From an uncultured Candidatus Saccharibacteria bacterium (lineage in GTDB: Bacteria; Patescibacteriota; JAQUNI01): a stretch of 64,000 nucleotides of DNA. Of this stretch, positions 8 through 27,114 are shown in pieces. The notes under the pieces were generated by a model. It worked only from the letters and a program-made list of their open reading frames with translations. It had not been told where the DNA came from and made no database searches. Position 1 is the stretch's first letter, and every line of letters begins with the position of its first letter. Position numbers and translations under genes: made by a program. The stretch is from assembly GCA_964555185.1 (NCBI GenBank), contig CAZKRD010000003.1:19943-83942 (forward strand), given 5' to 3'.

Positions 8-706
8 TTGGGCGTGAAGCCCAAAAAGCAGGGCAAGATGGAAATAATAGATAAAATTGATAATGGGATTGATCCTGACATTTTAGGGAAGGAAGACCTA
101 GAGCAAATATTGCTAAGCAATATTTCTCCCAAAATTGATATCAATATCCATGTCATTAAAAAATCTAGTAGTAAAAATTGGTATGCGGTTATAGAGGTAC
201 CAAAGGCTTATACTGCGGTACAATCTTTAATAGATTATAGGTATTACAGAAGGAGAAACTTCAAAACGGAGCCCATGACTAATGATGAAATATTAGATGT
301 TATGGGTCGTGCAAAATACCCTGAACTAGATTTAGATTTTTCAACTGCTATTTATTGCAGTCACCCCATTTTAATAATTCATATAGTCAATAAGGGTGAA
401 GTAATATCGTCTGATTTCGGTTTTAATATATTTTACTCTCAGGATGAAGCGGCGGTGGCGTGGCGCTTGCCAAATCAAGAGCAAATACTGGACTTGAGGG
501 GCAATAAAGGAGTTTTTAAATATAGGAGCTATTTAGATCCGAACAAGCCAATTTTGTTTCCAGGGGATAATTATCTCGTTACGACCACCAGCGTATGTGA
601 ATTTAAGTTGAAAGATAAAGAAGTTAAGGTTTCCTATGAGGTTTTTTCGGAAAATCCAATAAGAAAGATGAAGAAGAGATCCTTTTCTCTAAGGGGCAAG
701 GGGTGA
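8..706 (+). CDS. hypothetical protein (may be 5'-truncated by window edge)
   Basis: 232-aa ORF from track, ends TGA; no motif I can recognise by eye. Confidence 0.3.
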   Translation: MGVKPKKQGKMEIIDKIDNGIDPDILGKEDLEQILLSNISPKIDINIHVIKKSSSKNWYAVIEVPKAYTAVQSLIDYRYYRRRNFKTEPMTNDEILDVMGRAKYPELDLDFSTAIYCSHPILIIHIVNKGEVISSDFGFNIFYSQDEAAVAWRLPNQEQILDLRGNKGVFKYRSYLDPNKPILFPGDNYLVTTTSVCEFKLKDKEVKVSYEVFSENPIRKMKKRSFSLRGKG

Positions 707-1133
707 TGATCGCTTCAAACATTACTTGAACATGCGCCTGATTGGCATACACTCAAATGCTTCGTTAAGTCTAAAGTACGATGCGATCAAGAGGACGGTT
801 GCTTTGATTATGATGACCTTGATATGTTGATGACTGTGCAGAGAGACCAGACAAATCCAAGAGTAGGAAAAGTTACTGTGAAAGATCAGTAAGACAAAGG
901 CTATGAATTCAAAGGAGAAATTCACGATAATATTTCTGGAGCAACTTATATAAACTCAACGATCATTCCGGGACAGTTTCTCAAAATTACAAACGATTTT
1001 GACTTTATTCAATTCGCGTCTCCCGGTCCTAATGATATTGAGTACTTCTTGGAGACTGGTAGTTGCGTTGTCGATGACAACCAACAAACGACAATACTAA
1101 AAAAGATAGGCAATAGAGAATTAATTTAAACAT

Positions 1134-1724
1134 ATGCAAGAACAAGCTCAAGAGGAGGTGGAAAAACCGCAAAATGTGACTGCTAATACGCCGGTTACGC
1201 AGCCACAAAAGAAAAAGCACGGTTGTTTATGGGCGCTTCTGGTGGTCATTGGCTTGATTCTGATTATTGGAATTGTTTTGATTGCATCATGTAGTAAAGC
1301 ACTTAAAGAAGCTGAGGAACAGGAACGAGAAGAAATAGAGAAAGAAAAAGTTGTCACAGATACTGAAGCGGAAGGAGAGACTATCGATGAAGAAGCTATA
1401 GAAGTAACGCAAGTGGATATTGAGGAATTTATGGCGGAGTTTGATGATAATCAGTTAGCTGCTGAAGAAAAGTATAAGGATAAATGGGTGCGGATGGAGG
1501 CCAAAATTCGGAATATTAGTGATGACATTTTCGGTACGCCGTTTTTGTCATTAGAACCTGTTGGTAGTGATGAGTTTACGATGACATCGGTTAAATGTAA
1601 TTTTGAGGATGCGGAGCAACTAATGGAAGTTAAAAATGGTGAGATTATTACGGTGCAAGGAAAAGTAAGTAGTCAAGATCTGGGTGTTATTTCATTGCGT
1701 CATTGTGAGATTGTGGGCGAATAA
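1134..1724 (+). CDS. membrane-anchored OB-fold (tRNA_anti-like) protein
   Basis: N-terminal TM helix (LWALLVVIGLILIIGIVLIA), acidic E-rich linker, C-terminal ~100 aa (KWVRMEAKIRNISDD...ITVQGKV) resembling tRNA_anti-like OB-fold proteins. Confidence 0.35.
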   Translation: MQEQAQEEVEKPQNVTANTPVTQPQKKKHGCLWALLVVIGLILIIGIVLIASCSKALKEAEEQEREEIEKEKVVTDTEAEGETIDEEAIEVTQVDIEEFMAEFDDNQLAAEEKYKDKWVRMEAKIRNISDDIFGTPFLSLEPVGSDEFTMTSVKCNFEDAEQLMEVKNGEIITVQGKVSSQDLGVISLRHCEIVGE

Positions 1725-3433: not shown

Positions 3434-4027
3434 TTAAGGTAAACTTTCACAAGCAAGGCCATCGTTATCATTACCATCTAACCTATGAATGTTCCCAGCT
3501 CCTTGTTGCACACAATAGTTATAGCAGGCCTGAGCGGCGGCGTGAGTTGTGAAATCAGAACAATTATATCTGTTATAACTACAATCACAAACTGCTGTCG
3601 TGGGCGGTGGCGTAGGCTTAGGTGTCACTTTGGGTTGTGCAGTAGGGGTGGGTTCGACAGGTGTCGGTTCTAGTTCTTGTGGTTGAGGCGGTTGTTCTTG
3701 TTTTGGCTCTTGAATCAATGGTTCAACTTTTTGGGTTTGTTCGGTTTTGGGTTGTGTCGTAGGAGCGGGTTCAACAGGTGTCGATTCTGATTCTTCAGGT
3801 TGAGATGGTTCTTCTTGCTCTGGTTCTTGATTTAATGATTCAGCTTCTTGGGTTTGTTCAGTGGCTGATTGTTCCTGTACACCTTCTTGTGGTTGTTCTG
3901 CTTCGGTTGTTCCTGTTTTCGTCTCCTCTATATTGGTTTCTTCTTCTCTAGGGATTTGAGTGGTTTCTGTACAACCAGATAAAATCAACACGCCAACTAA
4001 AATAACAAATAATGTTATTTTTTTCAT
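3434..4027 (-). CDS. lipoprotein with Pro/Glu/Thr-rich tandem repeats and C-terminal Excalibur Ca-binding motif
   Basis: Lipobox LILSGC; ~100-bp tandem DNA repeats encoding EPxPTxQPK units; C-terminal DGNDNDGLACE matches the Excalibur DxDxDGxxCE motif. Confidence 0.6.
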   Translation of the reverse strand: MKKITLFVILVGVLILSGCTETTQIPREEETNIEETKTGTTEAEQPQEGVQEQSATEQTQEAESLNQEPEQEEPSQPEESESTPVEPAPTTQPKTEQTQKVEPLIQEPKQEQPPQPQELEPTPVEPTPTAQPKVTPKPTPPPTTAVCDCSYNRYNCSDFTTHAAAQACYNYCVQQGAGNIHRLDGNDNDGLACESLP

Positions 4028-5683: not shown

Positions 5684-6505
5684 ATGTTTAGAAAATATAC
5701 CTTGATTTAAATCACAAAACCTCCCGCCAGATTATGGTCTTGCGACCAACAGACTCTTTCGAGACTGACTTTGTAAAGCAAGTTCCTCTGACGAGAGGCT
5801 CTCTATGCTTTACAAGGCTTTTGATGCCATATCAGTTGAAAACTGACTTAGGCGATTTGATTGTAGGGTCTAACTGGTTAACTCCTCTTACATCAATTAT
5901 TACTTAGCCTTTTATAATCTTATTATACAGCAGAGGCTTATTATCTGTAAATCTTAAAATGAACATTAGCGCCTCGCTCTTGAAGCCAAGGCCTGTTCAA
6001 AATTTCCTTGCGCTCTTACTACTTGAAAGCGACTTACCAATTCGTTCACTGTCCCCCAAAAACAAGTTTTTTACGATAAAGCTGGAAACGAGAATGATTC
6101 CGATGAGTGAAATGCACAGAAGAAACAAGATTATCAGGAATATCAAGAAGATGAGGCAGTATTATTGATTCTTGCATTTTCCGAAGTCTCGGTGTAAGGT
6201 GGTATTAGAGTCGCAAAAAACACAGTTCAAAAAAGGACAATCTGGTAACCCTAAAGGTCGGCCCAAAGGAACTAAGAATTTCTCTACTATTTTTGATGCA
6301 GCTGTCAAACAGATAGCGATAAAGGATAACATCTCTGTAGCACAGATTGCTTTCGTAGTAGTAAAGAAGCTCAAGAGAAAGCAAGAGAGATCATAAAATT
6401 TTTAAGAGAAACACAAAACGAGAACGGCAACAATTAAACAAAAAAGGCGATAAAGAATCAACCTGTAAAAACAGGTAAAAAACAGGTGGGTGGTAGAAAA
6501 GCAAA

Positions 6506-9011: not shown

Positions 9012-9410
9012 AGGTCTATTTTAACAAAATTATAATAATTCTTTACACTGGCAACAAAAATATGATGAATACTAAAGACACAAATCCTCCAAAGCATAAA
9101 CCACGGAAGTATTTAGAAATACTGCGACAACTTGGGAAAAATGGGGTCGGGGTCGACTCTGATTTTTCTTTAGCTTAAACTCAAAAGTTTTACACTTAAA
9201 GTCCGATGTTGCTCCGCATCGTGGATAATGTTAGAACTATTATCCAGCGACAAAATGAGTATATTTACATCCCAGACTTATCTTCACAAGGTCAGATTTA
9301 GTTTATTGATTATTACTCCACCCCACTACTCACTATATATTTTGAATAAAAGGTTCCTGACACCTTTTTTCCCAGGCAAAAATTTCCTCCCCCCAACCCC
9401 CTCCATTTTT

Positions 9411-9448
9411 GCCTGCCTGCTGTTTTGGTAAGGCGAAATTAACAGGCC
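9411..9448. repeat. left 38-bp terminal inverted repeat of RM cassette
   Basis: gcctgcctgctgttttggtaaggcgaaattaacaggcc is the reverse complement of 13099..13136 with one mismatch. Confidence 0.85.
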
Positions 9449-9451
9449 AAA

Positions 9452-10912
9452 TCAATTTTTGAGTATAGTCAGGTCAATATCAATCTGCTTTCCAGCGACC
9501 AAATCGCCAGCAATAGATTCCAGTTTTTGCTTGATTCGTTTGGTTTTCTCGTGAGTCAAAACAACTTCCCGATAAACTTTTGCGATTTGGCCTCTCAGAC
9601 CAGCTGGAAAATTAGGGAATGGTGTATTCAAAAATTGATTTGTCTTGATTTCTTTCATCTTTGACCCTATCGCAAGCCCAGCACAATAAAGTCGCATATA
9701 GTTGCAGTTCATAAAACAAGACATAAATAGTAAATCAGTATCAGGATAACCGGAGACCCTATAAATCCCTTGATTGTGTTGGGCTTTACCATACAGAGCT
9801 ATGTCAAAGAACATTGCGACACCAACATATTCTCCTCGGCCGCCACGCGAAGTTCGATTGACGAGCAACATCGCATTTTTGTTTAGATTGTTCTTTTCGC
9901 AAGTGATACGCTCCTCGTTTCTAAACGCGCCGAAGTCAGTAATATTTGCCGGCGTAACCCAAAAATATTTTAGTTCCTGACTTGTCCCGACCATGCGTTT
10001 TTTAGGCGTGTTCCCACTCTTGATATTTTTTTGATCAATTAGAAAAAATCCTGCTTTGTAATTCCGAACTAAAAAATCAATCTGCTAAAATTCTTTGCTA
10101 TATGTCCTAGTATCTAAACGAATCTCTTTCCCGATTTTGTTGGTAGTTGGATATTCGTACTGAAATTTCTTTGATTTTTGATTTGAGAGTTCCTTTTCAA
10201 TCAACTCATTGATAGTGGCGGATTTGTCTCTGACAAACCTTTCTTGTTTTATGACCGCCGTAACAAGTTTTTCAATATATTTAATTACTTCCTCCTGATT
10301 TTTTTGGTTCGGAAATGGAATTTTACAATCCAAAAAAAGTGTTTTTGCGTGCTTGATCGTGGTGCCTCGTGAGACAAGGAGTAAGAGTTGAATTTTAAAA
10401 AAAACACTTTTCAGCAATCCAAACACATATAGTTTTTGTTTTGTAAGGGGCAACCTGTATATGCCGCCTGAAATCATATGTTGTGGATAATCTTTATCCA
10501 AAATGATAACCTCGCCGACATTCGAATCTTTTGAAATCAAAATATCACCTTTTTTTAATTCATAATTTTTGAAACTCGAGGGTAGAATAGGAACCACACT
10601 TTCGGGCGAGAATGCAGGCAAAAAATAATCCGGCTGTAACCCCTTTGTTCGAATAAACTGAAATGGAGAATTCGATATATAACTCTGCGATCCGACCTCA
10701 ACTCCTTTATCAGTGGATTTGAGCGGACGATCAAGGAGATCGCGCAAATCCACACTATTTCTATTCTCAATTCTTAATCCTTTATATTGAGAAGCGGAAA
10801 GAGAATAGTGCCTGGAAGCTACTTCATTGGAGCGTATTTCAGTTGGTACTTTAATATAGTTCATTTGTCCAAAAAAACATCTTGTAGAGTTTTCTCTTGA
10901 CCTAAACACCAA
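9452..10912 (-). pseudogene. HsdS-like two-TRD specificity subunit interrupted by a single in-frame TAG (10085..10087)
   Basis: ORFs 10085..10912 (TRD1: GDILISKDSNVGEV...IPFPNQKNQEEVIKYIEKL) and 9452..9994 (TRD2: NTPFPNFPAGLRGQIAKVYRE) are in the same frame; the 31 intervening codons are open and separated only by the TAG. Confidence 0.6.
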
Positions 10913-13008
10913 TCCTTGAATTCCTTGACTGTTTGGGTAAATTCTTCATCAAGCAAGGGTTTACCCTCCTCATCTATTTTAACCTCAAATTTATTACTAT
11001 CAATTTTATAGATCGGAACAAAATGTTTAACACGCTTGATGGTTTTTACTTTGTATCCGACTCGCTGAATATCTTTCACAAAAATGTTGTAGCCATTCTC
11101 ATTGAGTTTCTTCAATTCTTTCTCAGATGGCTTGTAGGCAACGATGACCGTTGTATTGACTCCCGTATCGGCAAATACATTTGCAGGAAGATCGAATAAA
11201 GCAACGACTCTCATTTTTGACATAATCCATTTCCTTGCCTTCTCCCATCTATCAATTGATGCTATCGAATTTGAAAGTATAATACCGACTCGGCCGTTTT
11301 CTTTCAAGATACGGTAAGCATTTTCAAAAAACACAAGGCCGAGATCAATCCAATTTCCATTTCTTCCAACGTGCCAAAGCTCATAGAGTTCAATAATCTC
11401 TTTATCTTTTTGAGTTTTTGGTTCAAATTTCCTATCTTCTCCAAACGGCGGATTAGTTAGGACGATATCAAATTTTTTGAGTTCAGTATAGTCGTCCCAC
11501 GCATCCCAATTTCCGGCCTTGTGTTTTGCTGGAATGAGATTTACTAATTTCCCGTCCTTGTCGAATTTGTGAGTGATGGAACCATAGCCCGGCTGGAATT
11601 CTATCTTGGCGTTTCCGTCTCCGTTCAGAAGCATATTTAACTGTGCTAACATGACCATTTGCACGTCGTTATCAATTCCATAAATGTTTTTATCGTCCAT
11701 TTTTCTGTCGGACTTGACATAAGAAATTGACAAGAAATCTCCGCTGCCAACAGTCGGATCGGCTATCGTGTCCAACGCTTTCGGGTGAACTATATCAACA
11801 AGAAAATCAATCAATGGAATTGGTGTCAAAAATTGTCCCTTCTCGGATTTGGTAAAAGCGTTCGCAAAACGATAGAAAATGAGTTGATATAGATCAGTTG
11901 TACTCGATCTGGTAAAGCTGTAATCCTGCAAGTTATGGACTATTGAACCCACGACGGCAACATGTCCCTCGTTTTTCCAGTCAATAATTGAATTGCTCAA
12001 AATCACTTTATATGTACTTACCGCTTGGGCGCACAAATCCCGCATGCGTTTAATAAATGTTTGTATACTTTGGTCGTTGAGCGTCTTGAAATCGCGTTCA
12101 TTTTGTTCGATATAAAATTTGAGACGATGAATATCCCCGTATTCATCGTCTTGAATATAGTATTTCAACAACTCGTTCTTTTTTTCGTCGAAAATTTTGA
12201 GCGCGATAAGTTGAACCAAAATTTCATATCCGCGCTGGTTCAACATGCTTACCTTGTCGAGCGTTCGCAAAATATCGGAAATCGCCTGATTGATTTGAGT
12301 ACTAAAGACTCCGGTGATAACATCAAGATCATTTACGGTTCGTGCAGACCTGTCAATTTCTATATCAATAATGCGCTTTTTGATTTGATCAAAGGACGGA
12401 ATTTTTCGGAATTCATCGGGTAGGTGGAGAGACAATTCTCTTGTTGAACTGTTTTCTCCTTTTAGGTTGTACGATTCATCAAGGCGAATAAACTTGCCAT
12501 GCTTTTTTTGGAATAAAAATAGCCGTTCGGTGTCATAGAGAACGCCAAGACAAAAGTCGCTCTCCGATTCTTTAATGGCTGGTTTAAGTTGTTGATTATA
12601 GACCGTTTCAATATCCTTGCCATCTTCTTTCTTGAATTCAATGACGGCAATGAGATGACTTCTCAACCAATCAAGGTCGGATTGATTCTTTTTTGTAATC
12701 CAATTTTTATATCTATCAAACCAATTCTTATCGTCGAAAATCGCGCCGTCAAATTTGATGGGTGCAGAATTCTTGTTGCCTTTCGGAAAATAAACCTCCG
12801 AGCCGATAAAATCTTTTTGATAAAGTCCTGAATATACCAATCCGTAGAAAAATTGCCATTTGTAATATTCTTCGTTGGGCGTATTTCTTGACCCCTTGAT
12901 TTTGACCTTCTTATTCAACTTAAGATTGACAGGAAGGAAGGCCATGAAGTCTTTTTTTGTCAAATAGAACTTATCAAATTTTTGTTTTGTTTCAAAAAAT
13001 GTCTTCAT
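10861..13008 (-). CDS. type IIB/IIG restriction-modification enzyme (PD-(D/E)xK endonuclease fused to N6-adenine methyltransferase), BcgI-A-like
   Basis: N-terminal FDGAIFDD...IAVIEFKKED (D...ExK); methylase motif I DPTVGSGDFL and motif IV NPPFG; 3' end overlaps the specificity gene. Confidence 0.8.
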   Translation of the reverse strand: MKTFFETKQKFDKFYLTKKDFMAFLPVNLKLNKKVKIKGSRNTPNEEYYKWQFFYGLVYSGLYQKDFIGSEVYFPKGNKNSAPIKFDGAIFDDKNWFDRYKNWITKKNQSDLDWLRSHLIAVIEFKKEDGKDIETVYNQQLKPAIKESESDFCLGVLYDTERLFLFQKKHGKFIRLDESYNLKGENSSTRELSLHLPDEFRKIPSFDQIKKRIIDIEIDRSARTVNDLDVITGVFSTQINQAISDILRTLDKVSMLNQRGYEILVQLIALKIFDEKKNELLKYYIQDDEYGDIHRLKFYIEQNERDFKTLNDQSIQTFIKRMRDLCAQAVSTYKVILSNSIIDWKNEGHVAVVGSIVHNLQDYSFTRSSTTDLYQLIFYRFANAFTKSEKGQFLTPIPLIDFLVDIVHPKALDTIADPTVGSGDFLSISYVKSDRKMDDKNIYGIDNDVQMVMLAQLNMLLNGDGNAKIEFQPGYGSITHKFDKDGKLVNLIPAKHKAGNWDAWDDYTELKKFDIVLTNPPFGEDRKFEPKTQKDKEIIELYELWHVGRNGNWIDLGLVFFENAYRILKENGRVGIILSNSIASIDRWEKARKWIMSKMRVVALFDLPANVFADTGVNTTVIVAYKPSEKELKKLNENGYNIFVKDIQRVGYKVKTIKRVKHFVPIYKIDSNKFEVKIDEEGKPLLDEEFTQTVKEFKDWCLGQEKTLQDVFLDK

Positions 13009-13098
13009 GAAATTTTTATTCCATCAGATTGCTTGATTATACATCATGGTTTCCTTACGTATTTAGTATAGCAAGAATATTAAAAAAAGAACAGAGTG

Positions 13099-13136
13099 GC
13101 CTGTTAATTTCGCCTTGCCAAAACAGCAGGCAGGCA
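13099..13136. repeat. right 38-bp terminal inverted repeat of RM cassette
   Basis: ggcctgttaatttcgccttgccaaaacagcaggcaggc. Confidence 0.85.
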
Positions 13137-13139
13137 GGT

Positions 13140-13366
13140 TGAGATGGCTCTTCTTTCTTTGGCTCTTGACTTAACGATTCAACTTCTTGGGTTTGTTCAG
13201 TGGCTGATTGTTCCTGTACATCTTCTTGTGGTTGTTCTGCTTCGGTTGCTCCTGTTTTCGTCTCCTCTATATTGGTTTCTTCTTCTCTGGGGATTTGAGT
13301 GGTTCCTGTACAACCAGATAAAATAAACAGGCTAACTGAAATAATAAATAATATTATTTTTTTCAT
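13140..13366 (-). pseudogene. truncated duplicate of the 5' end of lipoprotein gene 3434..4027
   Basis: First ~75 codons (MKKIILFIISVSLFILSGCTGTTQIPREEETNIEETKTG...) and the upstream catctttttgaattatt leader are ~90% identical to 3792..4035; reading then continues into the TIR. Confidence 0.55.
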
Positions 13367-13375
13367 CTTTTTGAA

Positions 13376-14221
13376 TTATTTGTTCAGGCATTCTAAATAC
13401 TGCTTGTCAGACAGGGCTTTCGCTTCCTGCTCAGTCTTAACGACCGTTTCTTCCGCCTTGTCCTTGATCGCTTGTAGCAATTCTTCACTGGAGTAAACTG
13501 CGACCATACAAGTATCGTACTCTGATTGTCTAATATCTCGAAGTTGAGAAGGACTAAAAGGAAATCCTTGTAATCTTTCTGGTAATGGTTCGTATGATTT
13601 CTTAGCGCAGTCGCCTTTCGCATCTAATATTTCAAGTTCTTTAGGTTTCAATGTCTTTTCGGCCTCCTCTTGTATGTAATTCATATTGACCTTGAATTTG
13701 TCAAAACTTAACTGGGTTTCAGCCTTACATTTTTCTATCTTTAATTGAGTTTCCTCTTCCTTTCTTTGCTCTTCGGTTAGCCTTTGGGCTTCTTCCGTCG
13801 CTTTTTTCTCTGCTTCTACTTGTCTTTTTGCTTCCTTCTCGGCCTCAGCCTGTTGAGCCGCCAAGACTTGTTGTTGATGTTTTCTTTCTTCTTCTTGTTC
13901 CTTTGCTCTTCTCGCTATTTTTGCTTGGGCTTCTGCCTCTGCTTCTTCCGCTTCCTTTTCTACTCTTACTCTTTCCTCTGTTTGCCTCTGGAGTTCCGCT
14001 TCTTGCCTCTCTTTTTCCAGCTTAGTGATCTCTCGATCAATCAACTGCTTTCCTATTTGCTGTTCAGTTCTGATTTGCTCCTGCTCTGATGATCTTTGCG
14101 TTTTAACATAAGAAGCCAAGACCGAAAAGTTAATAATCAAAAAAAGCGCAACCCCAGCGCAAATATAAGAGAGAATCCTCCAAGGAAATATTTTTTTAAC
14201 GAAATTCCAGATTCGTTTCAT
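13376..14221 (-). CDS. membrane-anchored coiled-coil protein (E/K/Q/A-rich)
   Basis: N-terminal TM helix, ~150-aa charged coiled-coil segment, Cys-containing C-terminal domain. Confidence 0.4.
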   Translation of the reverse strand: MKRIWNFVKKIFPWRILSYICAGVALFLIINFSVLASYVKTQRSSEQEQIRTEQQIGKQLIDREITKLEKERQEAELQRQTEERVRVEKEAEEAEAEAQAKIARRAKEQEEERKHQQQVLAAQQAEAEKEAKRQVEAEKKATEEAQRLTEEQRKEEETQLKIEKCKAETQLSFDKFKVNMNYIQEEAEKTLKPKELEILDAKGDCAKKSYEPLPERLQGFPFSPSQLRDIRQSEYDTCMVAVYSSEELLQAIKDKAEETVVKTEQEAKALSDKQYLECLNK

Positions 14222-14241
14222 CTTTTTAAATATTTTTATAT

Positions 14242-14296
14242 AAAAACGTGGAAAAACGTGGAAAAACGTGGAAAACCATGGAAAATGGTGGAATTG
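14242..14296. repeat. 10-bp tandem repeat array (gaaaaacgtg x3 plus two degenerate units)
   Basis: aaaacgtggaaaaacgtggaaaaacgtggaaaaccatggaaaatggtggaa immediately upstream of the 13376..14221 start. Confidence 0.75.
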
Positions 14297-14797
14297 CAGC
14301 TCCCAAAGGTTGGGATTTAGAGTGAGGGTTGTAGTAAATCGAGATTGAGGTCGAGTAGGTCAGGTGCTTTATGTTGTCCGATTCAATGCTATGTCAAAAA
14401 CCGTTATAGAAGAGGTTATAAAAAATGCGATAGTTAGCATGACAAGAATGGATATATTTTTTCGTTCCTTTATTCTATTTTTATAATTTGTCCTGCCCTG
14501 CCACTCACTATATAATTATAAAACCTGCTTTCATTATAGCAGGTCGCTTTGATTGAAGGAATCAAAGGAGTTCGAATTTGATTCGGGGTAATAAAAAATA
14601 ATCGCGTCGATAAGCGATTTTTTTGTTGGCTCCCTGTATTGGACGCATTTAGAACTATAGATTGGTACAAGATTAAACAAGAATTTAAGCTTATTCAATT
14701 TATACTCAAACGCAATAATGTTTATATAATGCTTTGAAAAAAATCCCATTTGATTTTGACATTTTCCACATTTTATAATAAAATTAAAGTAAGAATT

Positions 14798-14941
14798 ATG
14801 TCAGACGCAAATTTATTAAACCTTATTATTGGAATCATTGGTGGCGTTCTGGGTGTTATAGCAACGCTTTTGGTTTTTTTTATAAAAATTGGCAGAGCTA
14901 TTGAAAAAATAGACAAGCTTGAAGAATGGAAAAAAATGTGA
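14798..14941 (+). CDS. small single-TM protein
   Basis: MSDANLLNLIIGIIGGVLGVIATLLVFFIKIGR...; first + strand gene of the AT-rich module. Confidence 0.3.
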   Translation: MSDANLLNLIIGIIGGVLGVIATLLVFFIKIGRAIEKIDKLEEWKKM

Positions 14942-15338
14942 AACAAAAATCAATGCAATAGAGAAAGAATTAGCCACCTTAAAAGAATTCAAGGCAAATG
15001 CTCAAAAATTCATAGACAAAAGTATCTATGAATCCAGAAGTCCAATAGAGCTTACTGAATTTGGAAAACGATTATTAAAAGAGAGTGACTTTTACAGCAT
15101 ATTTGAAAAACATAAAAATAATCTCGTAAACAAATTAACCCGATTCTCTCCTGCGACAAAATATGATGTCCAAGAAAAATCTAGAGAGCTTATGAACAGC
15201 TTAAATGATTGTGAAGCTTTCAAACCTTTGAAAACTTATGCCTTCAACAATGGAAAGGATTTCGGACAAATATTAAGAGCGGGGGCTATTCCTCTACGAG
15301 ATTATTATTTAAAGAAACATCCTGAAATAACACAATAA
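14919..15338 (+). CDS. hypothetical protein
   Basis: 139-aa ORF co-oriented with its neighbours; no recognisable motif. Confidence 0.35.
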   Translation: MKNGKKCETKINAIEKELATLKEFKANAQKFIDKSIYESRSPIELTEFGKRLLKESDFYSIFEKHKNNLVNKLTRFSPATKYDVQEKSRELMNSLNDCEAFKPLKTYAFNNGKDFGQILRAGAIPLRDYYLKKHPEITQ

Positions 15339-15445
15339 TTTTAATTTTTTAGAGGCTTCGGCTTAACTAAATACACCTTTTTTTCAGGGTGTATTTTACT
15401 AGCATTGCCTTTTAGGTAATCTGGATAGGGGGAAATAAAAAAGTA

Positions 15446-16027
15446 ATGAAAAATGTAAAAAACAACAAGGAAGATGCAAAAATTATAATTGATTATGCAA
15501 AAATAGAATGTGATAATCTAAAAATTCTTTTGCCTATGTTAGATGATATGCTAATAGACAAAACATCTGATAAAAAGATGCCTGAAGGTTTAGATGACTG
15601 GAATTGGAAAATTGCTGAATTTATTGAGTTTAGAACCTCTTATATCGCTGTAGATATTAGTGCAGATGCTGACTTTGAAGCTGGAGAATGGGGTATGCCA
15701 GTAGCAGGTGGTGGAATGGCAACACCTATTGGCGTAGAGGTAAATGACAAAGATAATCTTATGGTTTTAAGACAGGAAATTGATGCTATTTTAAACCATA
15801 CTATAGATAAGATACCAGAATTTATTTCAATGAAAGATAGACCAAAATGGAAATGCAAAAAATGTGGCAGATTCTTAGGAAAAGAGCTTTCATCATTAGA
15901 TGAAATAAAAAAGTTATTAAGAAATTTTAACATCAAAAAATATTGGAAATGCCGTTCTTGCAAAACACCTAATTATTTTGAGTTCAATGGTAATGAAATT
16001 ATTTTTAAATCTGACTTGACTAATTAG
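15446..16027 (+). CDS. hypothetical protein with C-terminal CxxC...CxxC zinc ribbon
   Basis: WKCKKCGRF...WKCRSCKTP. Confidence 0.4.
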   Translation: MKNVKNNKEDAKIIIDYAKIECDNLKILLPMLDDMLIDKTSDKKMPEGLDDWNWKIAEFIEFRTSYIAVDISADADFEAGEWGMPVAGGGMATPIGVEVNDKDNLMVLRQEIDAILNHTIDKIPEFISMKDRPKWKCKKCGRFLGKELSSLDEIKKLLRNFNIKKYWKCRSCKTPNYFEFNGNEIIFKSDLTN

Positions 16028-16043
16028 TGATTATTGCTATAAT
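16016..16043 (+). promoter_or_regulatory. sigma70-like promoter TTGACT-N16-TATAAT
   Basis: ttgact (16016-16021), 16-nt spacer, tataat (16038-16043). Confidence 0.45.
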
Positions 16044-16235
16044 GTACTTAATAAGGTTCGTTGAATTATAAATAATCTTGTTTTGTGGGATGCACATACA
16101 AGAGAATTGTTTCTAATTTATAGGTAATCCACATAGGTGGACTATAGAAGCCAGAACAATGAATAACAGTTTGTTTTGCAAGCTGGTATTTGTTGTTTTG
16201 GCTTTTTCTTTTTTAAAAAACTTTCAACAAACAAA

Positions 16236-16268
16236 CCGGCAGTACACAAACTGCTGGTTTTTTGTTTA
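16236..16268 (+). terminator. rho-independent terminator
   Basis: ccggcag-N8-ctgctgg then TTTTTGTTT. Confidence 0.5.
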
Positions 16269-16429
16269 AAGATGTCTGAAGTAAGTAATGAGAAAAATAA
16301 TAAAAAAAATAGATAACTCAAAAAAAGAATCTGATTTTGAGGCAAGGAAAAACTTGTCCGGTTTTTTCAGTTTGCTTCTGGAAATAGACCAAAGAGTAAG
16401 CCCGCGTTTATATAAAAAGACTAAAAACA

Positions 16430-16690
16430 ATGAAAATAACAGAGATTCAAATAATTCCAATTAAGCCTCAAAACGGTCTTGTGGCCTTTGCCAGCGTAGT
16501 ATTCGATAATTGTCTCTATCTAGGCTCAATAGGCGTTTATTCCCGCCTAGACGGCACAGGATACCGCCTTACCTATCCCATGAAGAAAATAGGCGACAAG
16601 AATATCAATATCTACCACCCCATCAACAGAGAAGCCAGCGAGGCCATTGAAAAAGCAATAATCGCAAAGGCAAGGGAGATATTAAACTAA
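16430..16690 (+). CDS. spoVG: SpoVG family protein
   Basis: MKITEIQIIPIKPQNGLVAFASVVFDNCLYLGSIGVY...NINIYHPINREASEAIEKAI aligns by eye along its length with SpoVG. Confidence 0.75.
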   Translation: MKITEIQIIPIKPQNGLVAFASVVFDNCLYLGSIGVYSRLDGTGYRLTYPMKKIGDKNINIYHPINREASEAIEKAIIAKAREILN

Positions 16691-16874
16691 ACAACCACTA
16701 AAGAAGTAATGAAAATATTAGACACTATTATTTTAACAATGCCTATTAGTTATTATGATATTACCGACCACTCACACTTCATTCCTTCAGTTGAAGGAAT
16801 GTTGGAAAGCCGACGGGCTTATTGCAAATACCAAAAGCTTTTTAGAAAACGATTTGACTTAGATAAAAATAAGT

Positions 16875-17087
16875 ATGAACAAATGTGAAAAACTTTACCA
16901 AAAAGGACTGAAACAAATCAAAGAAGGGACAAGACTTTCTCCCTTAAGGGCTATTCGCTTGAAATGTCTTGATTGTTCTGGTTGGTCAGAAGCAGAGGTA
17001 AGAAAATGCGTTATTCTTGACTGTGCTCTGTATAAGTTTAGATTTGGTAGAAACATGACAGGGAAAAATCCATCAAAACGTAGATAA
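16875..17087 (+). CDS. small Cys-rich protein
   Basis: CLDCSGWSEAEVRKCVILDC. Confidence 0.3.
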   Translation: MNKCEKLYQKGLKQIKEGTRLSPLRAIRLKCLDCSGWSEAEVRKCVILDCALYKFRFGRNMTGKNPSKRR

Positions 17088-17640
17088 AACTATAGACCGA
17101 TAGTCTCCCCTAGATACCCCTCAAACTTACCTCCAAGGGTCTCATCAGAAGGATTAAAGAATTTATATAGCTTTTACAAGGATTTACTAGTAATCTTTTT
17201 ATTTATAAAAATAATTGTGATGAGAGGAGGGGGTGGATCGTTCCATGTCATATCCTGAATACAAAGCAATTCATGACTCTTCCATTAAAAAAGCAAAATT
17301 ATTTTTGAGAATAGAAAATGACTTTTATAGAAAAGAATAAATTTAAAATCAGATTAAGATTTTCTAAAAATAAGTTAAGTGATCAGGCACTTAATAGGGT
17401 TTTTAATTTTATTTTGAACCTGAGTGATTCAGATATTAGCTCCAAAAAATATGAACAAAATAATTGTTCAGAGAAAAATGAGCATTTTCGCTGAAAGTGG
17501 TGTTAGATTTTAAGGGTTGCCATCCAACACCACTTCTAGTAGAAACTAACCCTTTATCAGAAATAATTAGTACATCAATAAGAATAGTGAGCGGTGGTGC
17601 TAATGCCTTCACCGCTTACTATTCCTGTTGAAAAGGCATT

Positions 17641-18078
17641 ATGAGTGAACCAGAAAAGTTGGAAACAATTATAACAAGACGGAAAGAAGGAGAACATACG
17701 CGGGACGACTCGGCGAAGGAATTTTTGCGCAAAAGGGATATTGAGGTGCGTGATCCAGAAAAAGCAAAAAGAAAACAATCAGTAAAGGTGCTAAAATTGC
17801 AATTTGTTGGCATCTACATAAATTTATTGGGACTGCTTAAGGGTAATGAATTAAAAGTTTATTTGTATATGCGGGTTAGACGGCGAATGAAAAGAAGCAC
17901 GATTGCCGATGAGACCGAATTTTTTAAGGATAAAAGTATATCAGCCAAAGAGCTGAATATCTCAACACCAACCCTTCTTAAAGCCATCGTTGGATTGGAG
18001 AAAAAAGGACTAGTGAAAAGGGACGGCAGGACTTCTGGCGGATTTGTAAAATTAAAAGTATTTAGTCAGCCCAAGTAA
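17641..18078 (+). CDS. winged-helix DNA-binding protein (replication-initiator/regulator-like)
   Basis: C-terminal ...ISAKELNISTPTLLKAIVGLEKKGLVKRDG... wHTH pattern; iteron array immediately downstream. Confidence 0.4.
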   Translation: MSEPEKLETIITRRKEGEHTRDDSAKEFLRKRDIEVRDPEKAKRKQSVKVLKLQFVGIYINLLGLLKGNELKVYLYMRVRRRMKRSTIADETEFFKDKSISAKELNISTPTLLKAIVGLEKKGLVKRDGRTSGGFVKLKVFSQPK

Positions 18079-18160
18079 AATTTTTTTACCTAGCAAGTAA
18101 ATTTTTTTTACTTGACAGGTAAAGTTTCTTTACTTGGGTAAGTAAAATTTCTTTACTTGG
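18075..18160. repeat. iteron-like array: four ~21-bp units, each a GTAAA-N6-8-TTTACYTGG palindrome
   Basis: gtaaaatttttttacctag / gtaaattttttttacttgacag / gtaaagtttctttacttgg / gtaagtaaaatttctttacttgg. Confidence 0.65.
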
Positions 18161-18641
18161 CTCAAAGCACAAAATGCCTTCTTCTACGCTTATATTAAAG
18201 GAAAAAATAGAAGCAAGAACGCTCTACATAAAGTAAGGCCACATATATAAAGATATAGATATAAAGATATAGATAGAGAAGTATTAACTTAAAGAAGGGG
18301 AAAGAAAAGAAAACTTCTAAAGAAGTTTGTTTCTTCCCCTCTTCTAACCTATCTTTACTTAACCTATCCTTACCTAACCTTACCTGTGCCGTCCGTGGAC
18401 CGTCCACCTATTCTGCTTGTATTGTTTTTTACATGTTTTGCTAACGCAAAACCGATTAAAAAATCTTTAAAAAATACAAAGAATCTTTTAAATCTTTGTT
18501 GGATATTATCAAAAAGAATCAAAAAATAAAGAGTTTTATGCGCGCTTTATAAAAAGAGAAGTGTCCCATTTATAAAAAAGAGGGCCCACACGAGCCTTAA
18601 AAGGTGATTATAAGGAAGTGTATAACTTAAGTTGACAAAAG

Positions 18642-18857
18642 ATGACAAAGAGGTACAATAATATAAAGAACATAAATAGGATGAATAACAATAAAAAGAA
18701 AATTCAACTTTATACCACCCAAGAAGTAGCTGACATTTTAAGGGTCAGTCGGCGAACTGTGTATAGGCTTATTAAATCTGGAAAATTAAAGGCAGTGATG
18801 ATTGGGCAATGGAGAATTAAAGCAGAGGATTTAGATAAGTTTTTAGATAGTCGTTAA
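18642..18857 (+). CDS. excisionase-family helix-turn-helix DNA-binding protein
   Basis: LYTTQEVADILRVSRRTVYRLIKSGKLKAV is the classic HTH_17/Xis pattern. Confidence 0.65.
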   Translation: MTKRYNNIKNINRMNNNKKKIQLYTTQEVADILRVSRRTVYRLIKSGKLKAVMIGQWRIKAEDLDKFLDSR

Positions 18858-18868
18858 TCTAAATTTAT

Positions 18869-20479
18869 ATGAAGAAAGTCGCTATTTACACAAGAGTTTC
18901 TAGCGAAGAGCAAGTAAATGGTTATAGCCTAGGAGATCAACAAGAGAAGTTGCAGGATTATTGTAAATCCAATGGTTTTCTATTAGAAAAAAGACATATA
19001 TACCGAGAGGAAGGAATTAGTGGCGCAAAAAAGGAAAGGCCTGTTTTAAGCCTGTTATTACAGGCAGCTCAAAATAAGGAGTTTGCCTTAGTTTTAGTTT
19101 ATAAATTAGATCGGTTTTCAAGGAGCCTAAAGAATCTCCTTGAGCTAGTTGCTGATTTAGAGAGAAATGGAATTGGTTTTAAGTCAATTACAGAGACATT
19201 TGATACTTCAACTCCGATGGGCAAGTATATGCTTCAGAATTTAGGGTCCATAGCTGAACTAGAGAGAGAGATGATCAGAGAAAGGACTCTAATGGGACAA
19301 ATCAAGTATCTTAAAGAGGGCAACTGGAAGGGGGGCATTACTCCCTATGGATACGATTACAATAAAGAGACTCACAAACTTGAAATTAATAAAGAAGAGG
19401 CTAAGATTGTTCGGAAAATGTATAAATGGGTTGCAGAAGAAGGTTCAACTTCACATTCAGTCCAAAAGCGACTTAATGATTTAGGGATTTCTACTAAGTA
19501 TGGTAACTTAGGTAAAAAGAAGCAGGTTAATGGTGCGTGCTTTTGGAAGAAAAGGACCGTTGGCAGGATTTTAACTAACGAGATTTATTCGGGTACATTT
19601 ACTTATCGTAAATATAAATATTTGGGGAGGGTTAGAGGAGAAGATAATTTACGTCCCGAGGACGAGTGGATTAAGATTAAAACTCCTAGAATAGTTAGTA
19701 AAAAGATTTTTGATTTGGTCCAGAATCAAATAAATAAAAATAAAAAACACTCACCGAGAAATAGTAAGTATAAATATCTTTTTGCCCACATGATTAAGTG
19801 TGGTTACTGTGAAGGTAGGTATGGGAGTATGTATAGTGCTGAACGCAAAAGAGGTGTAGTTGGACGGAAGAGATATTTTTGTCATAACACCAGAGCGGAT
19901 AATAAACAGGAGAAATGTAAAGCCAAAAGCGTGGCAGAAAAAAGAATTAGTGAGCCCATCTGGAACAAGATAGCAGAGGCGTTGAGTAATCCAGCCATAG
20001 CTTTTGAGCAATTGGAAAAGATACAGAAGAAAGAGAACAACATTGAGGAGGTTCAAGAGAAACAGAGAGAATCAGATAAGCTGATCCTTAAGAACAAAGA
20101 AAAATCCAGACGATTACTGGATTTGTATTTGGGAGGTGGGGTAGATAAGGAGACTTACGAAGAGAAAGTGGGGGAGATAAATAAAGAGGCCGATAGCTTC
20201 AGGCGGGAAAAAGTAAGGTATAATAACCTTTTTATTTCCAAAGAAGAGAAGAAGGCGAGAACACAATCAATTCAGGAGATGTATGGGCGGTTCAAGGACA
20301 ATCTTAAGAAAATCACCTATTCTCAAAAGAGAGAAGTGCTTAAAATGTTGATAGATAAGGTAATTATTAAAGGCGCAAAGATTGATATTTACTGTAATAT
20401 TCCCTATAAATACTCGTTTGAGGGACAGTCAACTCTCCTTCCGTGTCTTTGCCTTCGGGGTCGGGCAGAAATTCATTGA
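18869..20479 (+). CDS. large serine recombinase (integrase)
   Basis: N-terminal AIYTRVSSEEQ catalytic serine motif, recombinase domain, Cys-rich zinc ribbon (CGYCEG...C...C), coiled-coil C-terminus. The last ~15 codons read antisense through the LTD gene. Confidence 0.9.
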   Translation: MKKVAIYTRVSSEEQVNGYSLGDQQEKLQDYCKSNGFLLEKRHIYREEGISGAKKERPVLSLLLQAAQNKEFALVLVYKLDRFSRSLKNLLELVADLERNGIGFKSITETFDTSTPMGKYMLQNLGSIAELEREMIRERTLMGQIKYLKEGNWKGGITPYGYDYNKETHKLEINKEEAKIVRKMYKWVAEEGSTSHSVQKRLNDLGISTKYGNLGKKKQVNGACFWKKRTVGRILTNEIYSGTFTYRKYKYLGRVRGEDNLRPEDEWIKIKTPRIVSKKIFDLVQNQINKNKKHSPRNSKYKYLFAHMIKCGYCEGRYGSMYSAERKRGVVGRKRYFCHNTRADNKQEKCKAKSVAEKRISEPIWNKIAEALSNPAIAFEQLEKIQKKENNIEEVQEKQRESDKLILKNKEKSRRLLDLYLGGGVDKETYEEKVGEINKEADSFRREKVRYNNLFISKEEKKARTQSIQEMYGRFKDNLKKITYSQKREVLKMLIDKVIIKGAKIDIYCNIPYKYSFEGQSTLLPCLCLRGRAEIH

Positions 20480-21935
20480 TCCAGACAGTGCGTGGATATT
20501 CTTGGGCTTCTTTAGGGCTTTGAGCTGAACAAATGTTTTGTTCAGCTGGTGTGGGTTCTAGGCTCCAACACCAATCACCATTCATTTTATTATAAGATTC
20601 AGCTTTGGGGGCTTCTCCATATTCAATCTCATCAATTGCTTGGCCTGAGGGCCAGAGGAGCCTGACCCAATCACCACTGTTGTTTAAGGTGATCTTGGTT
20701 TCGGAATAGGGGAGGCTTAGATACTCCCCTGCTTTAATTTCAGAATCTTCAGGAAAGGTATAGGGCCGTGATCCTTTATCCTCTTCGTCATCTAATTGCC
20801 AATTTTCCAGATCAATTTCATCTGGGCCTGGGTTGTAAAGTTCAATAAATTCTCCTTCCGTGTCCTTACCTTCGGGGTCGGGTAAAAATTCTGAAATCCA
20901 GATATGACGGGGATAGCTGGAAGAATCGTCTTTTTCGTCTTCTGAAATTACATTCTTCTGTCCAGGTGTTAAAGTAGTGCTCCAGGTCCAAGTGTCATCT
21001 TCCTTACGATTGTAGGATTGGTTTTTGGGTACAGGGCCGGAATAACTTACCTCTTCCAAGGTTTCATTATTGTGAATCAAAAAGACTGTGTCACCACTAT
21101 TGTTTAAAAGGAATTTTGAACCGGTGTAAAAGGCAAGGTAAGAATAGGCCGGCATCGTGGTGCCGGGATCAATTGTAAAACTTGAGGCGGTCTTATCTTT
21201 TATTTTCCAAGATGATAAATCAGCGGTTGTGTCTGAATTATTGAAAAGCTCAACAAACTCTCCTTCCTGGTCAGAGCCCTCTGGGTCAGGCAGAAATTCA
21301 TTGATTACAATATAGTTTATAGAGGGGGTGGTATCTTGGGGGTAGGCGGCGCTGTTTTTTTGTTTGGGCGTGCCATAGATTGGGCCACCATTGCTGTCTT
21401 TACCATTTATAACTATTTGATTGTTCGTCGCCCAATTATCAGAGCTTGAAGCTTCTTTTTGGGGGTCAACCCTTTCCATGCTTGTTTTGTCTGTACTGTT
21501 GCCGCTCAACCAGTCGCTGGAATTGTCTATTTCATCGATTGTATTATTTAAGTTGTCTTTTAAGACAAGATGCTCTCCAGAGTTTTCTAGAGCGCCGGTA
21601 TAGATTTTGTTAGCGGGAAGGTCGGAGATTGTGTTATCATCGGTGCGCTCAAGCAGATAATAGCTTTTTGCCGGAATTGTATCAGCAAGAGCAATTGTTG
21701 GCGTACCATCTTTTGCTTCTAGGGTCCAACCAGCAAGGCCTATATCTTGATCAGTGTTATTAAAAAGTTCAATCCACTCATCCGCGGTAGAAGCCCCAGT
21801 TCCCATCCAAGCAATTTCGTTGATTAGGACATCACTAGGTGAGGCGGCATAGGTCCTGAAAACAAAAGATTCTGCCCCCAAGCAGAACAGAAGAAATATA
21901 ATTAGTCCGAGCGGCAATCTATATTGCCTACGCAT
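20367..21935 (-). CDS. secreted lamin-tail-domain (LTD) repeat protein, 3'-truncated
   Basis: Signal peptide; four repeats of INEFLPDPEG(S/K)D.EGEF(V/I)EL(F/Y)N; the fourth stops after ...PDPEGKDTEGE and continues as non-homologous residues from the recombinase region. Confidence 0.65.
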   Translation of the reverse strand: MRRQYRLPLGLIIFLLFCLGAESFVFRTYAASPSDVLINEIAWMGTGASTADEWIELFNNTDQDIGLAGWTLEAKDGTPTIALADTIPAKSYYLLERTDDNTISDLPANKIYTGALENSGEHLVLKDNLNNTIDEIDNSSDWLSGNSTDKTSMERVDPQKEASSSDNWATNNQIVINGKDSNGGPIYGTPKQKNSAAYPQDTTPSINYIVINEFLPDPEGSDQEGEFVELFNNSDTTADLSSWKIKDKTASSFTIDPGTTMPAYSYLAFYTGSKFLLNNSGDTVFLIHNNETLEEVSYSGPVPKNQSYNRKEDDTWTWSTTLTPGQKNVISEDEKDDSSSYPRHIWISEFLPDPEGKDTEGEFIELYNPGPDEIDLENWQLDDEEDKGSRPYTFPEDSEIKAGEYLSLPYSETKITLNNSGDWVRLLWPSGQAIDEIEYGEAPKAESYNKMNGDWCWSLEPTPAEQNICSAQSPKEAQEYPRTVWINEFLPDPEGKDTEGELTVPQTSIYREYYSKYQSLRL

Positions 21936-24365: not shown

Positions 24366-24425
24366 CATTTATTGTTTTAAAATCTGGGTGGTAATCATCA
24401 AAAACAGAAGGAGGGATGATGTATC

Positions 24426-24848
24426 GTGAAGAAGAAAATGTTCGCTTTTTTGTACTTTTTGCCACTCTTTGTGGTTATTCTCACCACAGTTATTAGATGG
24501 GGGAATCCGGAGAGCTTTAAGGGGGTTTTGGGGCTGCTTTCACCTCTCCTTAACCTCGTGCTTTGCTACTTGCTGCTAAGTTGGAAGATTTTCCGCAAGA
24601 TTTTCTTGCATGAGAGGTTTGTTGTGGGACAAACTTCCCATGCGAAGGCTTATAACAGGATCAAGGACAAGGAGATTCACGTTCATTTGCAAGTGGGTAG
24701 GAAAGTGGTGATTGATCAGAAGGTGTGCGTTAGAGCAACGGTCCCTTCTATAGATAAGCCGTGCATTTTGGTAGCCGTGGTTAATGAAGATGGAGAATCA
24801 ACCAGTCTTCCTTCTGCTGCAACCATTACTATCCTGGGCCCCTGCTAA
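24426..24848 (+). CDS. hypothetical membrane-anchored protein
   Basis: 140 aa, two N-terminal hydrophobic helices; followed by a terminator. Confidence 0.4.
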   Translation: MKKKMFAFLYFLPLFVVILTTVIRWGNPESFKGVLGLLSPLLNLVLCYLLLSWKIFRKIFLHERFVVGQTSHAKAYNRIKDKEIHVHLQVGRKVVIDQKVCVRATVPSIDKPCILVAVVNEDGESTSLPSAATITILGPC

Positions 24849-24884
24849 AGCGGTAGAAATATAAGACCGCTTTTTTATTTTTGG
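24848..24884 (+). terminator. rho-independent terminator
   Basis: aagcggt-N12-accgctt then TTTTTTATTTTT. Confidence 0.5.
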
Positions 24885-25122
24885 AACTTAAATCCCTTGA
24901 TTCCAAACTCCGCATTATTCAGAAAACATTGTCTTTCTTTGCTTTTTGGATTATAATCTACTAATATATTCAGTTAATTTCGTTCTTTCTACTTTTCGCG
25001 GTTGGCATTTCAATGTGGAGGGAGGTTTTTAAAATGTCAAATTTGGAGCTACACTATGATTCGGGTGTTTCGGTAGTTTAATGTTTTCTCGTATGTTCTG
25101 TCAAAGAAAAGGAAGGAGAGGG

Positions 25123-27085: not shown

Positions 27086-27114
27086 GTTTGTATGGTGATC
27101 TTTGGGAAAGGGAC

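Follow-up and report, generated by a model that had tools for sequence, protein, structure and literature searches.

Known systems driven by a large serine recombinase (LSR) take several forms. In skin with SpoIVCA, SPbeta with SprA, the Listeria comK prophages and the fdxN element with XisF, excision by the LSR rebuilds a host gene. phiRv1 of Mycobacterium tuberculosis is a small LSR element with an Xis-type recombination directionality factor that integrates in the repeated REP13E12 sequence, and the SCCmec/SCC islands (CcrAB/CcrC) are non-conjugative, insert at a gene end and form composites with several direct attachment (att)-type sites. The locus described here, a 64,000-nt stretch of DNA (the window) from a bacterium of the Patescibacteria (candidate phyla radiation, CPR), in all likelihood holds an integrative element driven by an LSR, a precisely delimited composite island of 20,821 bp inserted in a gene for a surface protein with lamin tail (LTD) domains. 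Like skin, SPbeta, the comK prophages and the fdxN element, the island is an LSR element in a coding sequence, and its precise excision would restore the open reading frame (ORF). It differs from them in that the host gene encodes a surface LTD protein, the host belongs to the Patescibacteria and there is no evidence of developmental excision. The mechanism is that of a standard LSR integration system, which is set apart by its host group, the LTD motif that it targets and the exchange of the C-terminal tail of the recombinase.

The window belongs to a scaffold of 706,972 bp (ENA ERZ23486238, BAEC19-1_SAMN10404973_METAG-scaffold_1), in whose record its position 1 is position 426121. A further 8.9 kb to the left of the window was fetched (L006; window coordinate = L006 coordinate - 8867), and negative window coordinates denote this parent-contig DNA. 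The closest named relatives of the window proteins are found in metagenome-assembled genomes of Patescibacteria, Parcubacteria and Moraniibacteriota, and the host is a Patescibacteria bacterium represented by a chromosome scaffold of ~0.7 Mb.

A sequence-only reading of this DNA had placed an AT-rich integrative element at 14300-20435, with its right boundary at ~20430-20436, where the LTD gene loses homology with its own repeats. The right boundary was borne out, and the exact crossover is the dinucleotide TC at 20434-20435, within the 3' end of the recombinase gene. The left boundary was not. The LTD ORF stops matching its own repeats after ...PDPEGKDTEGE, and its 3' portion, already reported missing from 14300-14400, is absent by tblastn from the entire window. 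A 300-aa ORF of the parent contig (L006 7585-8487, minus strand), 386 bp beyond the left window edge, proved to be the displaced 3' part, and the left crossover (attL), again TC, lies at -387/-386 (L006 8480-8481). The matching left junction therefore makes the element 20.8 kb long; it fills window positions 1-20435 and extends 386 bp past the left window edge.

Base composition was also informative. The island has a GC content of 36.1%, compared with 42.9% and 44.3% in its flanks, and the compositional step whose absence would have counted against an element is thus present. The low-GC block (0.31-0.40) spans window position 1 to ~20400, with values of 0.41-0.50 to its right, so the AT-richness noted earlier is real but is not confined to 14300-20435. 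Because low GC runs from window position 1, 14300 is neither a compositional nor a structural boundary. One could still propose an element of ~6 kb, from ~14300 to 20435, with the other low-GC DNA unrelated to it, since the 14.3-20.4 kb block is a co-oriented backbone and a relative with a similar backbone (L009, described below) measures just 8.2 kb. Such an element is extremely improbable, however, as no att-like sequence, P arm or LTD fragment is found near 14300, only the flank at -387 restores the LTD frame, and the low GC is unbroken to the start of the window. The stretch 14300-20435 is merely the rightward-transcribed backbone module of the island.

The two junctions allow all four att sites to be written out to the base pair. 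At either junction a P-type arm and a B-type arm meet at TC, a single TC is left after reconstruction, and the insertion took place without target duplication. On the sense strand of the LTD gene, where the crossover dinucleotide is GA (TC on the plus strand of the window), the junctions read GGAAGGA-GA-GTTGACTGTCCCTCAAAC and TTTTTGGGGGACAGTGAAC-GA-ATTTACTGAAATC. Joining the inner ends gives an attP of GGGGGACAGTGAAC-GA-GTTGACTGTCCCTC (short form GGGACAGTGAAC-GA-GTTGACTGTCCC), an imperfect palindrome of 12-nt arms that mirror each other at 11 of 12 positions; this is the symmetry expected of the attP of an LSR. On the TC strand, the reconstructed sites are CTCGTTTGAGGGACAGTCAAC-TC-GTTCACTGTCCCCCAAAAACAAG for attP and GGGATTGTAGATTTCAGTAAAT-TC-TCCTTCCGTGTCTTTGCCTTCGGGG for attB. 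The 12-nt arm motif occurs only at both junctions and at three further sites, against a chance expectation of 0.07-0.35 matches, and the P' arm followed by TC and antisense LTD recurs in four relatives (L009, L010, L012 and L015, see below). With inverted arms around a 2-bp crossover, hybrid attL and attR and no duplication, these sites are of the LSR type.

Joining the outer flanks yields ...EGE|FTEIYNPGPDEID... and restores the reading frame. The restored LTD gene encodes an in-frame 798-aa protein with a signal-peptide-like N-terminus and, at the C-terminus, LPQTG, a hydrophobic stretch and a basic tail, which by inspection reads as a sorting signal. The insertion point falls at the boundary of two LTD domains (...PDPEGKDTEGE|F(T/I)E(I/L)YN...). 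In its present state the minus-strand ORF at 20367-21935 includes three Pfam-matched LTD stretches and an N-terminal LTD-like unit recognized by eye. Beyond the LTD 3' part lie hicB, yebC and ruvC, and the other side of the island reads LTD5'-PGI-ruvB.

A complication is that LTD unit D3, at the right junction, has a direct repeat, D3', across the island. In the scaffold the two copies are 97.9% identical, with no mismatch farther than 28 nt from the crossovers and with a stretch of 362 bp that is identical. This stretch is longer than a short read and all Logan contigs break on entering the D3 repeat, as might be seen if a circular episome had been mis-joined to the chromosome through it. We consider such an artefact very improbable. 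The junctions are hybrids of P arm with LTD and of LTD with P' arm, as expected for integration, whereas a circle would need to carry attL and attR in place of attP, and the integrated relatives L009 and L012 have no such repeat. Moreover, an independent contig (L096, SDBT01380786.1) has the same attL junction and links attL through D3' to D4 and hicB. L096 matches the scaffold outside D3' and shows 19 differences inside it, and its D3' differs from D3 at 28 of 422 positions (~93% identical). D3 and D3' are thus distinct tandem domains, and the pre-insertion gene of this lineage therefore had one domain more than those of L009 and a second relative, L014. The identical interior of D3 and D3' in the ENA scaffold reflects either gene conversion or a consensus artefact. 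The 417-bp repeat was also considered as a target duplication or an assembly duplicate, and both were rejected because serine recombinases duplicate nothing and the D3' of L096 is distinct.

Related genomes provide both an empty site and further insertions. L014 (Logan SRR14699983) carries no element; it has the same PrsW-HSP20-VanW-TAL-RuvB-PGI synteny followed by an uninterrupted 663-aa LTD gene ending in LPQTG. The search for an intact LTD homologue in relatives, suggested by the sequence-only reading, therefore succeeded at the same locus, which counters an ancestral arrangement lacking an empty site and suggests that the island is mobile. In L009 (JGI Ga0366832_1000366), whose core DNA is 79-93% identical to the window, the order is ruvC-yebC-hicA-hicB-LTD3', an 8,191-bp element, and LTD5'-PGI-ruvB. 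The L009 element has an LSR 88% identical to that of the island and the same arms and TC crossover; its cargo is nearly all different, and it is inserted one LTD domain earlier in the same gene. The L012 element (LSR 56% identical) measures ~8.6 kb and encodes an AAA_25 ATPase and an MT-A70/MunI restriction-modification pair, and both of its junctions lie in an LTD gene.

The remaining relatives extend this pattern to other lineages. The LSR of L010/L011 (53% identical) adjoins ...SDTKNE of an LTD motif, that of L015 (Moraniibacteriota, 47%) adjoins ...GIDTGNE, and that of L016 (Parcubacteria, 42%) adjoins E|WVELYN in a gene of opposite orientation; the left junction of L016 was not located within 10 kb. 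A scan with the left-end sequence found a further relative, L097, at a D4-type boundary (EFIEIQNRG...). The motif abutted by the 42-56% identical recombinases in other Patescibacteria is ..(G/N)E|(F/W)(I/V)E(L/I).... As the clade (42-88% identity) sits at LTD motifs in several Patescibacteria, LTD targeting is a family trait, and more than one copy of the motif is used in nature. Literature searches returned no description of LTD-targeting recombinases in CPR bacteria, whose mobile elements are poorly charted. Base-pair-exact attL, attR, attP and attB are thus available for an LSR clade that aims at a conserved coding motif of which each gene and each genome has several copies, and the predicted 50-bp sites could add a multi-site-targeting family to the serine-integrase toolbox.

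Two side observations concern these relatives. A tRNA gene (Rfam tRNA, 57.5 bits) lies at 3904-3975 (plus strand) of L009, near the left end of its 8.2-kb element. In L016, a perfect-looking palindrome, AAGGGACAATTGTTTGTCCCTT, at 2360-2395 resembles a complete attP of the family and is located 7.6 kb upstream of the recombinase gene.

The recombinase itself matches the Pfam families Resolvase (3.3e-40), Recombinase (1.1e-20) and Zn_ribbon_recom (1.2e-07), and IYTRVSSEEQ and other residues are invariant in a 13-sequence alignment. The protein accordingly has the domains of an LSR, namely a catalytic Resolvase domain that carries the nucleophilic serine, then a recombinase domain and a zinc-ribbon/coiled-coil region. 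Its best curated matches are CcrB and CcrC, both far below cut-offs, and it has similarity to XisF and SprA as well. The adjoining gene encodes a helix-turn-helix (HTH) protein of the HTH_17/excisionase type (Pfam E 1.2e-20; TIGR01764 E 1.7e-16), with a sigma-70-like TTGACA-16-TACAAT at 18632-18659, and an excisionase-family gene is conserved beside the recombinase in L009, L012 and L002. Pfam and NCBIfam thereby confirm the Xis-like HTH protein and the 536-aa serine recombinase that had been recognized from the translations.

The crossover lies inside the recombinase gene, in a Thr codon of ...FEGQST. Codons from 20435 onward are host-derived, so that the last 14 residues of the integrated LSR, LLPCLCLRGRAEIH, come from the host. 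Across the reconstructed attP the frame continues with the tail RSLSPKNKFFTIKFETRMISMSEMHRKNRIIRNIKKMRQYY, which gives a predicted excised form of 563 aa. Because attP is inside the 3' end of the ORF, integration swaps the last 42 codons, which encode a basic tail, for 14 host codons, and the tail so displaced is left behind at attL, on the far side of the island. No part of the left ends is more conserved than the 125 bp coding for this tail. All five copies, of which this genome has four and L009 one, have an open tail frame with mostly R/K and I/L exchanges. The 32 variable sites are distributed 6/8/18 by codon position, a modest signal, and the copies are not independent. Since the catalytic and DNA-binding domains are unsplit, the integrated enzyme should stay active.

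Tail exchange is not limited to the island. The excised-form ORF of L012 is 681 aa long, since its frame runs on into an ORF with DUF5655, and integration there removes a domain of ~160 aa. Contiguous LSRs of ~700 aa exist in the database; among three long C-terminal extensions compared with the L012 tail (P0016, P0017 and P0023), that of P0017 has a weak similarity over 51 aa (E 0.002, pairwise). In database homologues P0002-P0013, conservation ends at ...GQ(S/T)T and is followed by unrelated short tails (LLPCLCLRG, LLLCLSLLD, HFLCRCLQD). Such tails are antisense LTD in the five loci read as DNA (the window, L009, L010, L012 and L015), and the similar Cys/Leu-rich composition of the remaining tails suggests that they are antisense LTD too.

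An attP inside the integrase gene is known from the SSV1-type 'suicidal' tyrosine integrases, which have been called exclusive to archaea (PMC8371274). The island resembles these systems in that its att site is inside the recombinase ORF, which makes this a partitioned gene, a 3' fragment is found at the other end of the element and leftovers record earlier integrations. It differs from them in that the enzyme is a bacterial serine recombinase, not a disrupted tyrosine recombinase, and loses a 42-aa C-terminal tail while its three domains stay in place. A bacterial serine recombinase gene that spans its own att site is an arrangement that the review reserves for archaeal tyrosine integrases. 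One possibility is that attP in the gene acts as a state sensor and that the island is at the same time a reversible on/off switch for the LTD adhesin, although it is doubtful that the two hold jointly. If they do, a full-length LSR (with the basic tail, or with DUF5655 in relatives) would exist on the excised circle only, and tail exchange would bias the enzyme toward integration or excision or change its stability. Reversible insertion would toggle the LTD protein, which would be anchored through LPQTG in one state and truncated and released in the other. The island would then be a serine-recombinase counterpart of the partitioned integrases of archaea and would, in addition, turn an adhesin on and off.

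The left end of the element is present more than once. TC followed by a P arm and the recombinase tail occurs four times in the same orientation, at L006 5576 (a), 6534 (b) and 8480 (c, the LTD junction) and at window position 6042 (d), with the P arms at -3289, -2331, -385 and 6044, and the sole P' arm is the one at attR. From (d) to attR (6042-20435) runs a 14.4-kb inner element that includes the backbone and the defence cluster; the 6.4-kb stretch from (c) to (d) lacks a recombinase and is probably a remnant of a second, related element. Given the three solo copies in addition to that at the LTD junction, one of them internal, the island is a composite of two related elements. The simplest history would be that the inner 14.4-kb element inserted at a non-LTD pseudo-site inside an older, resident relative, and that homologous recombination between the two right-hand parts then deleted one copy. 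An origin of the P arm at 6042 from attP x attL or attP x attR recombination was rejected, because the DNA to its left is not a P' arm and does not resemble LTD sequence.

This layout invites comparison with the SCC islands. The best curated matches of the recombinase are to Ccr proteins, as noted above, and the island is likewise non-conjugative and has several att-type sites. In contrast to SCC islands, its target is not rlmH, it has a single recombinase, no usable attB is regenerated and the internal P arm is on non-target DNA. An Excalibur-domain lipoprotein gene, which is complete in the 6.4-kb part of the island and has a truncated second copy in the 14.4-kb part, is found in L009 directly beside a homologue of the 281-aa gene at window 13376-14221. 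As a side observation, the Excalibur gene contains a 117-bp tandem repeat (2 copies, window 3629-3859) that is present in L009 also, and the truncated copy is 9 kb away.

Compared with L009, there is 1.67 kb of extra DNA between a hicA remnant and yebC (L006 5378-7046; window -3489 to -1821), and sites (a) and (b) lie in this insertion. The two copies are 98.5% identical, and each is followed by one ORF, for a 145-aa WG-repeat protein and for 72 aa, respectively. In L097 a left end consisting of the tail and a WG-repeat gene is inserted in the LTD gene, and an orthologue of site (a) is present in a diverged genome, L100. Sites (a) and (b) thus appear to be left-end relics of other family members. 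A terminator-like stretch, TTTTTTTATTCCCACAATCCCAGCAAAAC, is shared after each of the two ORFs, and the layout of the 1.67-kb insertion is cassette-like.

An important question is whether the island still moves. The LSR and the adjoining excisionase-type protein would recombine attL with attR and excise the island, so that the LTD gene and the full-length LSR gene would both be whole again. Several points weigh against this account. The attP pattern had 0 matches in JGI metagenomes and IMG/VR, where contigs break in the repeats, and neither the exact excised-form LSR (three tail variants plus that of L009) nor the exact restored LTD proteins of 659, 653 and 798 aa were found in a collection of 15 billion proteins. 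As contigs break in repeats and raw reads were beyond the search, the missing excised form is weak negative evidence. The divergence of the L009 LSR is near that of the flanking core, and the insertion could therefore be old and in part vertically inherited. In addition, every dataset is a short-read metagenome assembly and the target gene is repeat-rich, the origin of the solo P-arm copies is one that we infer, and a regulatory role of the tail would act on an enzyme whose functional domains already appear intact in the integrated form.

Taken furthest, these points describe a fixed relic, in which an insertion ancestral to the clade left an LSR and att sites that persist without function; the same gene of L009 is occupied by an LSR element, the searches of metagenome and viral contigs and of the protein collection yielded no excised form, and several decayed solo left ends are nearby. 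We think a relic unlikely. The LSR ORF is intact, as are the residues conserved in it and, with their 11/12 symmetry, both att arms; the insertion point is one LTD domain apart in two genomes whose cargo is almost wholly different, a relative with an intact LTD gene exists, and a related left end occupies a D4-type boundary in another metagenome (L097). The intact LSR, the symmetric att arms, the differing insertion points and cargo and the empty site lead us tentatively to favour recent or continuing mobility. The coordinates of the island, its cargo and the target gene are collected in Table 1.

Table 1. Features of the island and of the interrupted LTD gene, in window coordinates
Feature	Position	Strand	Remarks
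Schlafen/AlbA_2 protein, left-end cargo	from -163 (left-end cargo 8..1724)	+	
Membrane OB-fold protein	1134-1724	+	resembles superinfection-exclusion proteins
Excalibur-domain lipoprotein gene	3434..4027	-	DNA 91.5% identical to L009 copy; truncated second copy 13055-13366
Internal solo copy (d)	6042..6166	+	TC, P arm GTTCACTGTCCCCC and 41-codon recombinase tail; joined to non-LTD DNA
PD-(D/E)xK nuclease	7974-9011	-	PADLOC PDC-S02, E 3.8e-55
Two specificity-subunit ORFs	9452-9994, 10085-10912	-	PADLOC mad5/Specificity_I
715-aa N6-adenine methyltransferase	10861-13008	-	PADLOC mad2, E 5.7e-32; type I/II methyltransferase models
Transmembrane peptide	14798-14941	+	
139-aa ORF	14919-15338	+	
Zn-ribbon (CxxC...CxxC) 193-aa ORF	15446-16027	+	
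SpoVG	16430-16690	+	Pfam E 1.8e-11
59-aa ORF	16709-16888	+	
Cys-rich 70-aa ORF	16875-17087	+	
145-aa HTH-like (putative winged-helix) orphan	17641..18078	+	
Four 22-bp repeats	18072..18161		directly after the 145-aa ORF; each an internal palindrome, AAGTAAA-5 nt-TTTACTT
Excisionase-family HTH protein, candidate recombination directionality factor	18681..18857	+	58 aa; longer ORF from 18642
LSR, integrated form	18869..20479	+	536 aa; Pfam, NCBIfam, PDB
attR, right junction	20400..20470	+	P' arm GAGGGACAGTCAAC (20420-20433), TC (20434-20435), then B arm, antisense LTD ...PDPEGKDTEGE
LTD unit D3	20431..20852		direct repeat D3' across the island at L006 8060-8481; period 417 bp
LTD gene, 5' part	20436..21935	-	signal-peptide-like N-terminus, domains D1-D2-D3; ORF runs to 20367 via 21 alien codons

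The cargo appears to consist mostly of defence genes. The nuclease, specificity and methyltransferase genes form a defence cluster whose NCBIfam MAD2 match is below cut-off, and further cargo comprises DUF4214, transglutaminase-like and DUF5681 proteins and several small secreted or membrane proteins. A small temperate phage or a phage satellite, as opposed to a plasmid-like or cryptic island, might be suspected from the match of the LSR to a PHROG integrase, that of the Xis-like protein to an excisionase and the exclusion-like character of one cargo protein. However, searches of PHROGs and Pfam assigned no ORF to a capsid, portal, terminase or tail family, and the recombinase has no relatives in IMG/VR; a phage origin is improbable. 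The Pfam matches of the island include no relaxase, coupling protein or type IV secretion genes. The island is thus probably neither a prophage nor a conjugative element, and it would offer a route by which defence genes spread among reduced genomes with no need of phage or conjugation machinery. Its likeness to phiRv1 lies in its small size, the lack of a full virion set, the LSR beside an excisionase-family HTH protein and a multi-copy attB that allows alternative sites; it differs in its target, a conserved LTD coding motif, in having attP inside the LSR ORF and in its defence cargo. A full-length LOOT RNA (Rfam RF03000; 56.6 bits, gathering threshold 46.4) was noted within the island at window 5734-5854 (minus strand); several genes for small membrane proteins (5683-4037, minus strand) follow downstream of it, and the internal P-arm site is immediately to its right.

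Every called gene at 14798-20479 is on the plus strand, and the backbone agrees with its earlier description as a module of one orientation with SpoVG and with transmembrane, zinc-ribbon and Cys-rich proteins, all of which are present. The 145-aa HTH-like protein is an orphan. Its sub-threshold matches are to TrmB (E 0.0026) and a PHROG rep-initiator (E 0.0058), and it is 32% identical to a 149-aa ORF of L009. A word-indexed search returned one close homologue (86% identical), phmmer against 1.84 billion representatives gave three weak partial matches (E 1e-5 to 4e-4, residues ~101-144), and a single-sequence AlphaFold model was poor (pLDDT 42.7).

The four 22-bp repeats after this gene are followed by AT-rich DNA with short repeats at 18243-18385, and they thus have the layout of iterons, direct repeats spaced ~22 bp beside an AT-rich stretch. 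In L009, four TGGCACACCT repeats ~22 bp apart stand directly after the counterpart gene, in a sequence other than that of the window repeats. Because the layout of a gene followed by four repeats is kept, the pairing of protein and site is real, and the protein probably binds the adjoining repeats. Each repeat is a 7-bp inverted repeat and therefore fits binding by a dimer, at an origin or an operator. At lambda-type origins, such repeats are bound by a dimer. Searches of Pfam, PHROG and NCBIfam and for homologues identified no recognised Rep-family initiator or helicase/primase at the HTH-like gene; L010 and L012 carry DnaG-type zinc ribbon or AAA_25 genes at this position. The earlier proposal of a replicon-like module is therefore plausible with respect to the repeats beside AT-rich DNA and fails with respect to a recognised Rep family. 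The module may be an origin, an assignment that we make tentatively; it could possibly be an operator or regulator instead, and some other role is unlikely.

Other features of the window were noted in passing. Five tandem copies of a 10-bp unit, AAAAACGTGG, lie at 14242-14293, in the intergenic DNA between the divergent 281-aa gene (minus strand) and backbone; L009 showed nothing comparable. A further strain-variable segment of ~2.8 kb (24378-27169), on the right of ruvB, has no equivalent in the otherwise collinear L009. Finally, GC is lowered at 42000-46500 and 56000-57500 (0.36-0.40, compared with 0.42-0.50 in the core), and these segments may be other islands.

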